A stretch of 63,027 nucleotides of DNA, counting the filler, from an uncultured Thermoplasmatales archaeon (GTDB lineage Archaea; Thermoplasmatota; E2; DHVEG-1), in the NCBI GenBank assembly GCA_964517155.1. It is 5 parts of 5 records of this genome, joined end to end, with 100 filler letters (N's around TTAATTAATTAA, not from the genome) between each part and the next. Parts side by side here need not be neighbours in the genome. Positions count along the whole stretch, not along the records: positions 1 to 25,835 come from CAZFAZ010000043.1; 4 more parts are not named here. The stretch is one strand, 5' to 3'. Shown here piece by piece: positions 15,501 to 18,500 of this stretch. Made by a program: the position numbers. Position 1 is the stretch's first letter, and each line of letters opens with the position of its first letter.

Positions 15501-18500
15501 AAAAATCGTTGTATGATGCTATTTGGTGGTTAACTATACTTCGCTCCCTATAAAAAGTATCAATAAGCTCCCTCATTTTATATTTCACCTTAATTTTCTT
15601 TAATCATTACTTTCTACAACAAATCTATATATTACTGCATTTTTTGCAGTAGTACTTTTACGTGTAATTTTTACTATTTGTCCCGGTTTTGCCCCTATTG
15701 ATAAACAAACTGGATCGGTATCCAAAACTTTTGGAAGTTGATCTGGTGTTATATTATATTTTTTAAAAAGTTGTTTTTTTTCGTCTTCAGAGATTAATTC
15801 ATGGTTTGGAACTAGTTCATGGTTTAATATTTCAAATTGTTGTTTTTTAGTTTCTTTTGCCATGTTGGGTTCTTTCCTCCTAGTGGGGCATCGTTTTTAT
15901 AAGAGCGGGCCTGGAGGGATTCGAACCCTCGGCCACCTGGTTAAAAGCCAGATGCTCTACCTAGCTGAGCTACAGGCCCATTAAAAACAGGCCGGGACTC
16001 AGTTTTTTTATTTTTATATATTACACTCTAACAGATATTAACGATGTAAACAGACTACCCGCTATAATACTTCTTATATATATAATTTATGGGGCAGGAT
16101 TTTTTAGAATTAATTGATCTTTTTGTTTTTTAAAAATTATTTCATAATCTTCGAAAATAGGGTATCTGCCAAGTAGGACAGGTATGTCATTTCTACTGGA
16201 GATATGTATCTCTAACTCATCATATTTTACAAACTTTTTTTTGCTTCCTATTATTAAATCTAAATTTGATTTAAATAAAGATGTTGTACCGCCCGCAGTA
16301 TCTACAGAGCCTGCTCTTTTAAGTTTTAAACCTAGGTATCTTGCAATTGGCATTGGTATTACTATAAAGTCTCCACCTGAATCTAGTAATGCATCTATAA
16401 AAGGTGTTTCTTTTTGTGTTTCTTTAAATTGAAATTTAACAGGTACGACAGGGTATCTTAGATATTCAAATGTAAATTCGGTATTGGTCATGATTTCACC
16501 TGTAATAAAACATCATAATGATAATACTTTTGATGAGATGTTAAAAAATTAGTTTTTTTAGAATTCTCTTATTGTTTTATCCATTATCTTTGAAATTTTT
16601 ATTTCATCGTTTGGGAATCTTTCTTGAGGAAATTTTTCTTCGCAGGTTTTTAGTATATCTTCTATGTTTGCGCTGTGGTCTACTATTTTGTCGTTGAACA
16701 GCAGAATCCATTCACCTGAGAATTCTTGAGGCATTTCTTCTTTTTTCATCATTTTACACTTACCTTGTATCAAGTATTTAAAATTTATGCCGTTTTTTTG
16801 GTATTTTTATCTTATTTTAGAAATTTTAATCTTATATTTGCAGAAAATTATTTATACTAGAACCTACACACTATATTACACGTTTTAAGACTAAAATGCA
16901 AGAAGAGGTTAAAAATTATGAATATTATAACACTAGATGAGTTGTCAAAAGCAATAGCAAATAGAGTTGGAATAGGTATAGAAGAAGCAAAAAGAGATGC
17001 AGGTTTTGTAATGGATATATTTGGTTTTCAAGACCGTGTGATAGATAACGTTTTAGATCCAGAAGACCGCCAGCTTTTCTATATACTTGAAGAGGAAGGA
17101 ATGCTTACAACTGAGCGTGAGGAAACAACACTTTACGATGGTCGTGAATGGCGTACGCATTACTGGATTATAAAAAAGGATATAATACTTAAATATTCAC
17201 AGGATCAAAACAAAAGAACCCGCAGTGTTCTCTCAGATAAACAAACACTTGAAGATATATCTGATGAAGCAATATATGATGCATTGGATGACCAAATGTG
17301 GGTCACACGCAAAATAGAAGAGTAAATATTCCAATTGGAATATTTTTTTCAAAAAAATTTATATTCTTTTTCTTTTTTTTCAGCTACAAATTAAATTAGA
17401 GGCTAAAAATAAATTTTGTAGGTGAAGATATGGCAAAAAGAAAAATAATTATAAGTTCAGAATCTGTAACAGAAGGTCACCCTGACAAAATGTGTGATCT
17501 TATATCAGATGCAATACTTGACGAAGCACTAAGACAAGACAGCAACTCTCGCGTAGCTGTAGAAACAGGTACAAAAAACGGTGGAGTAATGGTCTTTGGA
17601 GAAATGACTACACAAGGATATATAGATATACCAAAAATTGTAAGAAATGCGATAAAAGACATAGGATACACAAAATCGGAGTATGGTATAGAATGGGAAA
17701 CATGCTCAGTATGGGTACAAATAACAGAGCAAAGCCCAGATATATCTCAAGGCGTAACAGAAGGAGATGGGCTTCATAAAGAACAAGGCGCAGGCGATCA
17801 GGGTATGATGTATGGATATGCATGCAACGAAACAAAAGAACTTATGCCTCTGCCAATTTCACTTGCACACAAACTTACAAAAAAACTTTCAGAGGCAAGA
17901 AAAAGAGGTGAAATTACTTATCTTAGACCAGACGGTAAATCCCAGGTTTCAATAGAATACGATGAAAAAGGAAAACCACTTCGTGCAGATACTATTGTTG
18001 TAAGCACCCAACATGATGGCGCAGTATCTCATGAACGCATCCAAAAAGATGTGATTGAAAAAATAATAAAACCAATATGTAACAAATGGATTGACAAAAA
18101 CACTGTTTTTCATGTGAATCCCACTGGTGCATTTGTACGTGGTGGACCATATGCAGACGCGGGACTTACAGGTAGAAAAATAATTGTTGATACATATGGT
18201 GGTATAGGAAGACACGGCGGCGGAGCATTTTCAGGTAAAGATCCAACAAAAGTAGATAGAAGTGCAGCATACGCATGTCGTTATATCGCAAAAAACATTG
18301 TTGCTGCGGGCCTTGCGGATAAATGCGAAATTCAACTTGCATATGCAATAGGTGTTGCAGAACCTGTATCAATAAATATTGACTGTTTTGGTACAAACAA
18401 AATACCTATTGATAAAATTGAAGATCTTGTCCGAGAGTTTTTCCCGCTTAAACCAGGTGAAATAATTAAACACCTTGATCTTAGAAGACCTATATTTTAT

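Follow-up and report, generated by a model that had tools for sequence, protein, structure and literature searches.

Which protein, if any, does the work of the transcription factor TFE in the Thermoplasmatota? Two papers state that the Thermoplasmata lack both subunits of TFE (PMC4495717, PMC7289017), and one of the two infers that the clamp of RNA polymerase opens without a factor in this group. A third paper describes an essential in vivo role of TFE-alpha elsewhere (PMC7704642). We analyzed a stretch of 63,027 nucleotides from an uncultured Thermoplasmatales archaeon (the window), which comprises five contigs joined with runs of N; positions 25836-63027 lie beyond the first contig, and the gene of interest is on the first. 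A genome-wide survey's note had proposed that this gene, which encodes a DUF6015 protein, provides a stand-in basal factor.

The DUF6015 gene and its distribution

The gene (16918-17325), which encodes 135 amino acids as previously described, is on the + strand and begins with ATG. Its product matches DUF6015 in Pfam with E = 3.7e-23 and 82.9 bits, which is above the cut-off of 27 bits. The second Pfam match is to TFIIE_alpha (residues 50-112, E = 0.025), and its 14.9 bits fall short of the cut-off of 22.9 bits. NCBIfam has no family for this protein or for its paralog (discussed below). The features of the locus are:

16843..16856, + strand: BRE-like A-run and TATA box of the DUF6015 gene, invariant or nearly so across 16 aligned upstream regions
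16902..16909, + strand: purine-rich Shine-Dalgarno-like site, 8 nt before the ATG, common to most of the 16 aligned regions
16918..17325, + strand: gene for the universal, A-type copy of DUF6015, 135 amino acids, from the ORF, Pfam, and distribution across the phylum
16924..17202, + strand: extended winged-helix domain, residues 3-95, from the model (pLDDT of about 90 over residues 1-90) and fold matches
17059..17172, + strand: TFE-like helix 3 and wing, residues 48-85 (R51, Y55, R67, W78, Y82, W83), from an HMM alignment to Thermococcus kodakarensis TFE, residue roles given in PMC7704642, and column frequencies
17272..17301, + strand: conserved C-terminal motif that includes Y120 and W128 and comes after a flexible linker; candidate replacement for the zinc ribbon as a second anchor
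11360..11497, - strand: Rpo1N clamp coiled coil, residues 235-280, nearly invariant in 30 genomes of the phylum; putative docking site
17430..18605, + strand: S-adenosylmethionine synthetase gene (metK), the downstream neighbor, from Pfam; in this lineage only

The rpo5-rpo2-rpo1 operon is divergent from the DUF6015 gene and 1 kb away. The metK neighbor is common to 39 of 112 loci, all from near relatives, and the full arrangement of rpo operon, DUF6015, and metK is limited to near relatives as well. Between DUF6015 and rpo5 lie a DUF5678 gene and then a clan AA aspartic-protease-like gene (16087-16773, - strand), which are common to 19 of 112 loci. Also, the N-terminus of Rpo1C (8076-9524, - strand) carries a long extension of about 100 residues that is rich in lysine.

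DUF6015 scored above the Pfam cut-off in 200 of 201 genomes from the phylum and in none of 14 controls, four of which are archaeal. The single genome without a match is 92% complete and in 220 contigs. This sample is five times larger than the one surveyed earlier (41 of 41 genomes and no controls out of 14) and gives the same picture. The protein had also been described as about 90% conserved in the family. This holds for the nearest 120 homologs, which are 85-95% identical to the query, but not across the family: in an alignment of 92 diverse members, the rows past the five closest are 35-70% identical to the query, and the core is nearly invariant. DUF6015 is one of the phylum's most constant genes of unknown role.

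The source genome does encode the paralog that was reported earlier (G000:C41:24342-24689). It adjoins taw3 and a serC-like gene (L062, 1408-1758). It belongs to a second clade of DUF6015, which we found in families f1, f2, f4, f5, f7, f12, f19, f29, f30, f33, and f34, sometimes in tandem (L312-L329). This clade is ancient. Its members are basic in the source genome's family and acidic elsewhere. A precomputed PF02002 label was attached to 10 of the 120 relatives of the paralog that were listed.

The weakest DUF6015 scores (E = 5e-7 and 3e-6) were from two genomes of family f17 (G011 and G022). In these genomes, the clamp region of Rpo1N matches in two pieces within a frame of 1150 amino acids, which suggests a large insertion.

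Three scans of viral contigs gave no confirmed relative of DUF6015, and phage and plasmid collections gave no match. The protein atlas returned DUF6015 clusters only, and without those it gave no usable match. No RNA holder was listed in the RNA runs.

A winged-helix fold without a zinc ribbon

The DUF6015 model has a pLDDT of 80.8 overall and of about 90 over residues 1-90; the linker at residues 101-112 scored low. The domain has two N-terminal helices, a short strand, a second HTH helix of just three residues, a recognition helix (48-59), a long wing (63-85), and another helix (87-95), after which the linker, which is flexible, leads to a small helix at the C-terminus. When this model was compared to known structures with Foldseek, the best match had E = 7.2e-4, ranks 1-7 and 9-11 were TFIIE or PIC chains, and rank 8 came from Pol III. 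Going by titles and lengths, we take chains W and Q to be TFIIE-alpha and chain O to be C82. Re-aligning the Foldseek matches gave Z scores of 7.9 and 7.8 for TFIIE-alpha (rmsd 3.0-3.1, 85 aligned), 7.2 for C82, and 6.5 for Fur.

For the paralog, the model had a pLDDT of 87.5 (the input alignment included 45 A-type rows), and ranks 1-9 from Foldseek were TFE, TFIIE, or C82 (best E = 2.5e-3). In wide structural searches with either model, Fur was tied with TFE and all Z scores were under 7. The earlier caveat about Fur stands: in the wide VIA search with DUF6015, Fur scored 6.5 and 6.3, versus 6.4 for TFE and 6.2 for TFIIE, and with the paralog, Pyrococcus TFE scored 6.9 over 92 residues versus 6.8 over 66 residues for Fur. 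A viral fold library gave no match at E ≤ 0.001.

Given these ties, DUF6015 might be a Fur/ArsR-like winged helix that regulates specific sequences, perhaps at genes for S-adenosylmethionine or polyamines, and its neighbors here (metK) and in f11 and f28 (speD/speB) would fit. We consider this highly improbable. FUR matches at most one of the 92 DUF6015 members, and neither FUR nor S10_plectin is among the 21 families that are matched by 52 members of the paralog family. DUF6015 has no metal-binding or dimerization domain, and its recognition helix is acidic. The neighbors vary by lineage, and we would not expect a local regulator to be nearly invariant across a phylum. A regulator of the S-adenosylmethionine pathway in particular was rejected, as the neighbors are lineage-specific.

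At the sequence level, TFIIE_alpha was the commonest non-self match in Pfam: 42 of 92 DUF6015 members matched it at E ≤ 0.5, as compared to six for the next family and four for S10_plectin. Within the paralog family, 50 of 52 members matched TFIIE_alpha weakly at E ≤ 0.1 (best 2.7e-6); the paralog from the source genome scored 17.3 bits against PF02002, which is under the cut-off of 22.9. We also compared a profile of canonical TFE to the 4843 ORFs of the source genome, and the best hit was the paralog (E = 5e-4); the DUF6015 query did not reach E < 1 with this profile. Aligning DUF6015 to TFE with hhalign gave probabilities of 41-73 over 46-54 columns, and the probability of 73 came with E = 3e-5 over 46 columns. 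The top sequence match in the PDB was also TFE (E = 0.063 and 0.11), closely followed by eS10 and by a BAG domain; the PDB search with a narrow alignment of paralogs gave one unrelated match (E = 2.8). All of the sequence matches to TFE are weak, and they extend over no more than helix 3, the wing, and the helix after it (46-54 columns).

The matches to eS10 raise another alternative, in which DUF6015 is a winged helix with a housekeeping role outside of transcription, perhaps associated with the ribosome as eS10 is, and its likeness to TFE is generic. Chains of eS10 were the next matches in the PDB (E = 0.15-1.7), via the W-R-x-x-Y-W of the wing, and the matches of four of 92 members to S10_plectin (E ≤ 0.5) reached 0.018. 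Also, DUF6015 is about as constant as a ribosomal protein, and it adjoins translation genes in some lineages. But DUF6015 is net acidic, the match to eS10 covers about 35 residues, the 52 members of the paralog family do not match S10_plectin, and the fusions described below are to DNA-binding HTH arrays. We view this alternative as very unlikely.

The zinc-ribbon pattern was found in all 20 canonical TFEs and in none of the 92 and 52 members of the two DUF6015 families, and the query has no cysteine. The survey's description of the protein as an extended winged helix of the TFE/TFIIE-alpha kind, without the zinc ribbon, is borne out by the models, the Foldseek results, the sequence matches, and the clamp-facing residues discussed below. 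We think it quite likely that DUF6015 and the winged helix of TFE-alpha share a common ancestor.

Patchy loss of canonical TFE, and the neighbors and fusions of DUF6015

At loose thresholds, PF02002 matches 129 of 201 genomes and 10 of 14 controls, mostly via other winged helices, so it cannot be used to count TFE. Instead, 20 of the 22 zinc-ribbon TFEs found by PF02002 were aligned, and we searched again with this lineage profile. We found canonical, zinc-ribbon TFE-alpha in 24 of 201 genomes, all at E ≤ 6e-21, with nothing else down to 1e-4. Canonical TFE is mostly missing, as the smaller survey had concluded (7 of 41 genomes), yet it survives in 11 of 45 sampled families. The survey had also cautioned that seven genomes hold both proteins; in our sample, DUF6015 accompanies canonical TFE in every one of the 24 genomes that have the latter.

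In a tree of Rpo1N from 63 genomes (FastTree, unrooted), the families with TFE form four separate clades. Canonical tfe adjoins trm56 in 21 of 24 loci, and an HD gene is on the other side in 8 of 24. In the source genome, trm56 and the HD gene are immediate neighbors on two contigs, with no gene in the gap, which points to a clean deletion of tfe. Canonical TFE looks to have been lost repeatedly from the trm56 locus. The data point to at least three independent losses, or to six or more if the copies in families f22 and f32, for which no adjacency to trm56 was displayed, were inherited rather than regained.

Two other observations concern these loci. Locus L236 (G051:C50:28783-29259) encodes a divergent zinc-ribbon TFE away from trm56, which was possibly regained by transfer. 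Also, the source genome has two diverged copies of a block with an unknown gene, trm56, and the HD protein (G000:C7, 19629-20670, and G000:C23, 3031-4080), which reflects either a duplication or a contig from a relative.

DUF6015 is sited away from the trm56/HD locus, so synteny gives no case for orthology with tfe, and it rules out that DUF6015 replaced tfe in place. Over the same six TFE-bearing genomes, mean identity is 67% for DUF6015 and 44% for the winged helix of TFE. Since DUF6015 co-occurs with TFE in 24 of 24 genomes, is more conserved, and is away from the tfe locus, we regard it as an old paralog that has a job of its own, and not as a displaced tfe. The earlier proposal of a stand-in basal factor should be revised accordingly: DUF6015 is not a late stand-in. 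It may have made TFE dispensable. And because it lacks the ribbon, scores below the Pfam cut-off, and lies at another locus, DUF6015 is not TFE-alpha proper; it is a variant within the TFE/TFIIE-alpha/C82 kind of winged helix.

The most widely shared neighbor of DUF6015 is a Rad3/XPD helicase (21 of 88 loci), whose gene almost always follows immediately downstream and in the same orientation. When we compared the coordinates of DUF6015 and XPD among the top 150 matches listed for each, and took in the loci examined for neighbors, at least 40 of 201 genomes, from 10 families, had DUF6015 directly upstream of XPD and on the same strand, with a gap that was mostly under 300 nt; 23 of these genomes are from family f8, so close kin dominate the count. 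(Examples are L174, 1603-3896, as well as L175, L182, L187, and L201.) The closest solved relative of the paired helicase is Thermoplasma acidophilum XPD (Ta0057, E = 5e-104). All 23 of the f8 genomes have a second XPD-like gene elsewhere.

That the best-conserved neighbor is XPD, and not a transcription gene, counts against the basal-factor reading. DUF6015 could instead be a partner of the XPD helicase, in repair or in the coupling of repair to the polymerase, which would echo the recruitment of TFIIH by TFIIE. The conserved pairing and the close relationship of the helicase to Ta0057 favor this proposal, but XPD was found in 149 of 201 genomes (E ≤ 1e-40), and with this query it was matched in none of 25 genomes from f28 and in 2 of 16 from f11, all of which keep DUF6015. 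Furthermore, the two genes are on different contigs in the source genome, and other lineages pair DUF6015 with RLI, with Lsm-SRP19-S8e, with speD/speB (f11 and f28), or with metK. Overall, a role as a partner of XPD seems unlikely.

Some DUF6015 domains are part of longer proteins. Of 52 longer representatives that we scanned, 12 had matches to HTH-type or other DNA-binding-type Pfam families beside DUF6015. Three fusions carry DPANN labels from NCBI (two Aenigmarchaeota and one Nanoarchaeia), and most of the others have no label. Given these labels, the DUF6015 family is not strictly confined to the Thermoplasmatota. In 29 long forms, the DUF6015 part has a net charge of -6 to -16, and the remainder is net positive in 23. 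One fusion gene lies amid purine, pyrimidine, topA, and tRNA-synthetase genes that are 30-40% identical to those of the source genome, which is a cellular setting. The fused DUF6015 domains scatter among the A-type sequences in a tree whose poor resolution prevents the fusions from being dated; DPANN archaea may have captured a Thermoplasmatota factor repeatedly. Joining DUF6015 to a DNA-binding array would suit a polymerase-contacting role, with the layout of a DNA-tethered activator.

Long, basic arrays of HTH-like repeats are fused to DUF6015 in P0181, P0399, P0444, P0232, P0240, P0416, and P0243 (L237, 10001-12265), and three of these proteins have DPANN labels. A scan of metagenomes for the Aenigmarchaeota-labeled fusion gave no match. 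On reading P0155, P0393, P0394, P0411, and P0412, we judged them to be over-extended gene calls or chimeras and left them out of the count. P0395 has DUF6015 at the C-terminus of a protein with a restriction nuclease and an nSTAND3 NTPase; this defense-like architecture is a single example.

A possible role at RNA polymerase

In the structure of the T. kodakarensis polymerase with TFE, the clamp is contacted by Y55, F65, W75, Y78, R51, R52, D59, K66, R67, and R81 of TFE (PMC7704642). In an HMM alignment, R51, Y55, R67, and W78 of DUF6015 fall on R51, Y55, R67, and W75 of TFE (4 of 10 identical), and two more are conservative (E59 on D59 and H81 on Y78). The other four are altered, two of them towards acid: R52 to Q/D, F65 to T, K66 to E, and R81 to hydrophobic (Q52, T65, E66, and I84 in the query). 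Across 92 rows, the conservation of these columns is 100% for R51, 98% for Y55, 98% for W78, and 63% for R67, so three of the four residues predicted by alignment to be identical clamp contacts are nearly invariant; Y82 and W83 are at 96-100%. The equivalent of W75 is not kept in the paralog clade. The median net charge is -5 for DUF6015 versus -6 for the winged helix of TFE, and the net charge of helix 3 and the wing is -3 versus +1. The wing-tip tryptophan of Pyrococcus TFE cross-links to the non-template strand, as reported in PMC13502027.

On the side of the polymerase, 30 genomes of the phylum, with and without TFE, show almost no variation in the clamp coiled coil of Rpo1N. This is not specific to DUF6015, since Spt4/5 binds there too: PMC3223566 reports that TFE and Spt4/5 share this site. 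A complex prediction for Rpo1N residues 1-315 with DUF6015, both as alignments, scored 0.01, which weighs neither way.

The C-terminal motif (Y..L....W) has Y120 in 94% and W128 in 89% of 92 rows, and it is kept in the paralog clade too. We propose it as a candidate for a second anchor that would substitute for the zinc ribbon. In Sulfolobus TFE, deleting the zinc ribbon abolishes stable binding to the clamp, and the truncated protein, with TFE-beta, still opens promoters (PMC4495717).

From these residues and the fold, we infer a role for DUF6015 at RNA polymerase. DUF6015 would be an ancient Thermoplasmatota paralog of the extended winged helix of TFE-alpha that lost the coiled-coil linker and the zinc ribbon, and it would act as a general transcription factor. 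Helix 3 (R51, Y55) and the wing (R67, W78, H81) would dock on the tip of the clamp coiled coil. Once docked, DUF6015 would keep Spt4/5 off the pre-initiation complex, its wing aromatics would hold the non-template strand at the bubble's edge, and the tethered Y120/W128 motif would be a second anchor. It would have taken over the essential part of TFE's job in the ancestor of the phylum, which would have permitted several deletions of tfe. DUF6015 is older than the losses and more constrained than TFE, so it probably did take over this part; it was already there, and under constraint, in genomes with TFE, and its connection to the losses would be explained most simply if it already carried the essential function. 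Several observations count against this reading: the weak and short sequence matches, the ties with Fur, the four altered clamp contacts and the more acidic helix 3 and wing, the near absence of the second HTH helix, and the effect of ribbon deletion in Sulfolobus. In addition, 24 genomes keep an intact TFE along with DUF6015, so one cannot simply be exchanged for the other.

Alternatively, DUF6015 might bind the clamp as a modulator or as a competitor (of TFE, of Spt4/5, or at a paused polymerase), not as an activator of initiation, and its paralogs might be alternative regulators. The TFE-type fold and the clamp-facing residues would serve such a role as well, DUF6015 has no ribbon to bridge the clamp and the stalk, the clamp site is shared, and the genomes with canonical TFE often hold 2-4 copies of DUF6015. 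But DUF6015 is single-copy and kept in lineages without a TFE to compete with, and repeated loss of a factor that is essential elsewhere (according to PMC7704642) is easier to explain if DUF6015 is an activator. A modulator is rather unlikely.

That DUF6015 is a TFE-type clamp-binding factor of some sort, activator or modulator, is reasonably probable. The narrower claim, that it is a basal factor on the clamp, uses its C-terminal motif instead of a zinc ribbon, and makes TFE dispensable, seems to us evenly poised. A bolder version, which is improbable, holds that initiation across the phylum relies on a fourth kind of TFE-like factor, which is ribbon-less, displaced a TFE that is essential elsewhere, is linked to XPD via the C-terminal motif, has alternative paralogs, and was repeatedly captured by DPANN archaea to serve as a module for binding the polymerase on DNA-binding arrays. 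We know of no TFIIE-TFIIH-like link in archaea, and the pairing with XPD and the fusions to HTH arrays bear on whether archaea link a TFE-like factor to the TFIIH helicase.

In the literature that we searched, we found no publication that names DUF6015 or such a factor; subscription papers or supplementary arCOG tables could hold an earlier annotation. PMC7325993 has a table of the T. kodakarensis chromatin proteome that lists TFE, and its table for T. acidophilum has no recognizable DUF6015, which is uninformative. If our reading is correct, it would name a function for this constant gene, and DUF6015 is a small and testable candidate, with a name, for the missing TFE of the Thermoplasmata, in cultivable organisms.

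How does DUF6015 compare to known systems? The DNA-binding domain of Fur/PerR (2xig, 2fu4; PF01475) has similar winged-helix geometry (Z = 6.1-6.8), but the alignment is shorter, with 8-10% identity and no support from sequence, and DUF6015 lacks cysteines, a second folded domain, and the metal-binding dimerization domain. Ribosomal protein eS10 (PF03501) has a similar motif at the end of the wing (E = 0.15 in the PDB, over about 35-50 residues), but eS10 is a basic RNA-binding protein and DUF6015 is acidic. eS10 does not appear among the matches listed by Foldseek and VIA for DUF6015 or the paralog, which does not exclude it.

Archaeal TFE-alpha (PF02002; 6kf4 chain G, 6pln, 6xjf, 1q1h) shares with DUF6015 the extended winged helix, the extra N- and C-terminal helices, the acidic character, the R-x-x-x-Y-x-L of helix 3, the W-x-x-x-Y-W of the wing, and 4 of 10 putative clamp contacts. 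Unlike it, DUF6015 has no coiled-coil linker or zinc ribbon, its second HTH helix is cut to a turn, its wing has three extra residues, four of the clamp contacts differ, it has its own C-terminal Y/W motif, and it is encoded at another locus. The best structural match is the N-terminal domain of eukaryotic TFIIE-alpha (5gpy, 7nvs; E = 7e-4 from Foldseek, Z = 7.8-7.9), although identity in the structural alignment is 13%, DUF6015 lacks the ribbon, and a beta subunit was not identified, with no search aimed at one; TFIIE recruits TFIIH, and the ortholog of its XPD is the conserved neighbor of DUF6015. Finally, chain O of 6eu2 and 7z1o, which we presume to be C82/RPC62 of Pol III, has a ribbon-less winged helix of the TFE type on the clamp (Z = 7.2). 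C82/RPC62 is a stable subunit with four winged helices and a coiled coil, whereas DUF6015 is a single domain of about 95 residues. By analogy, C82/RPC62 is a precedent for such a domain working without a ribbon.
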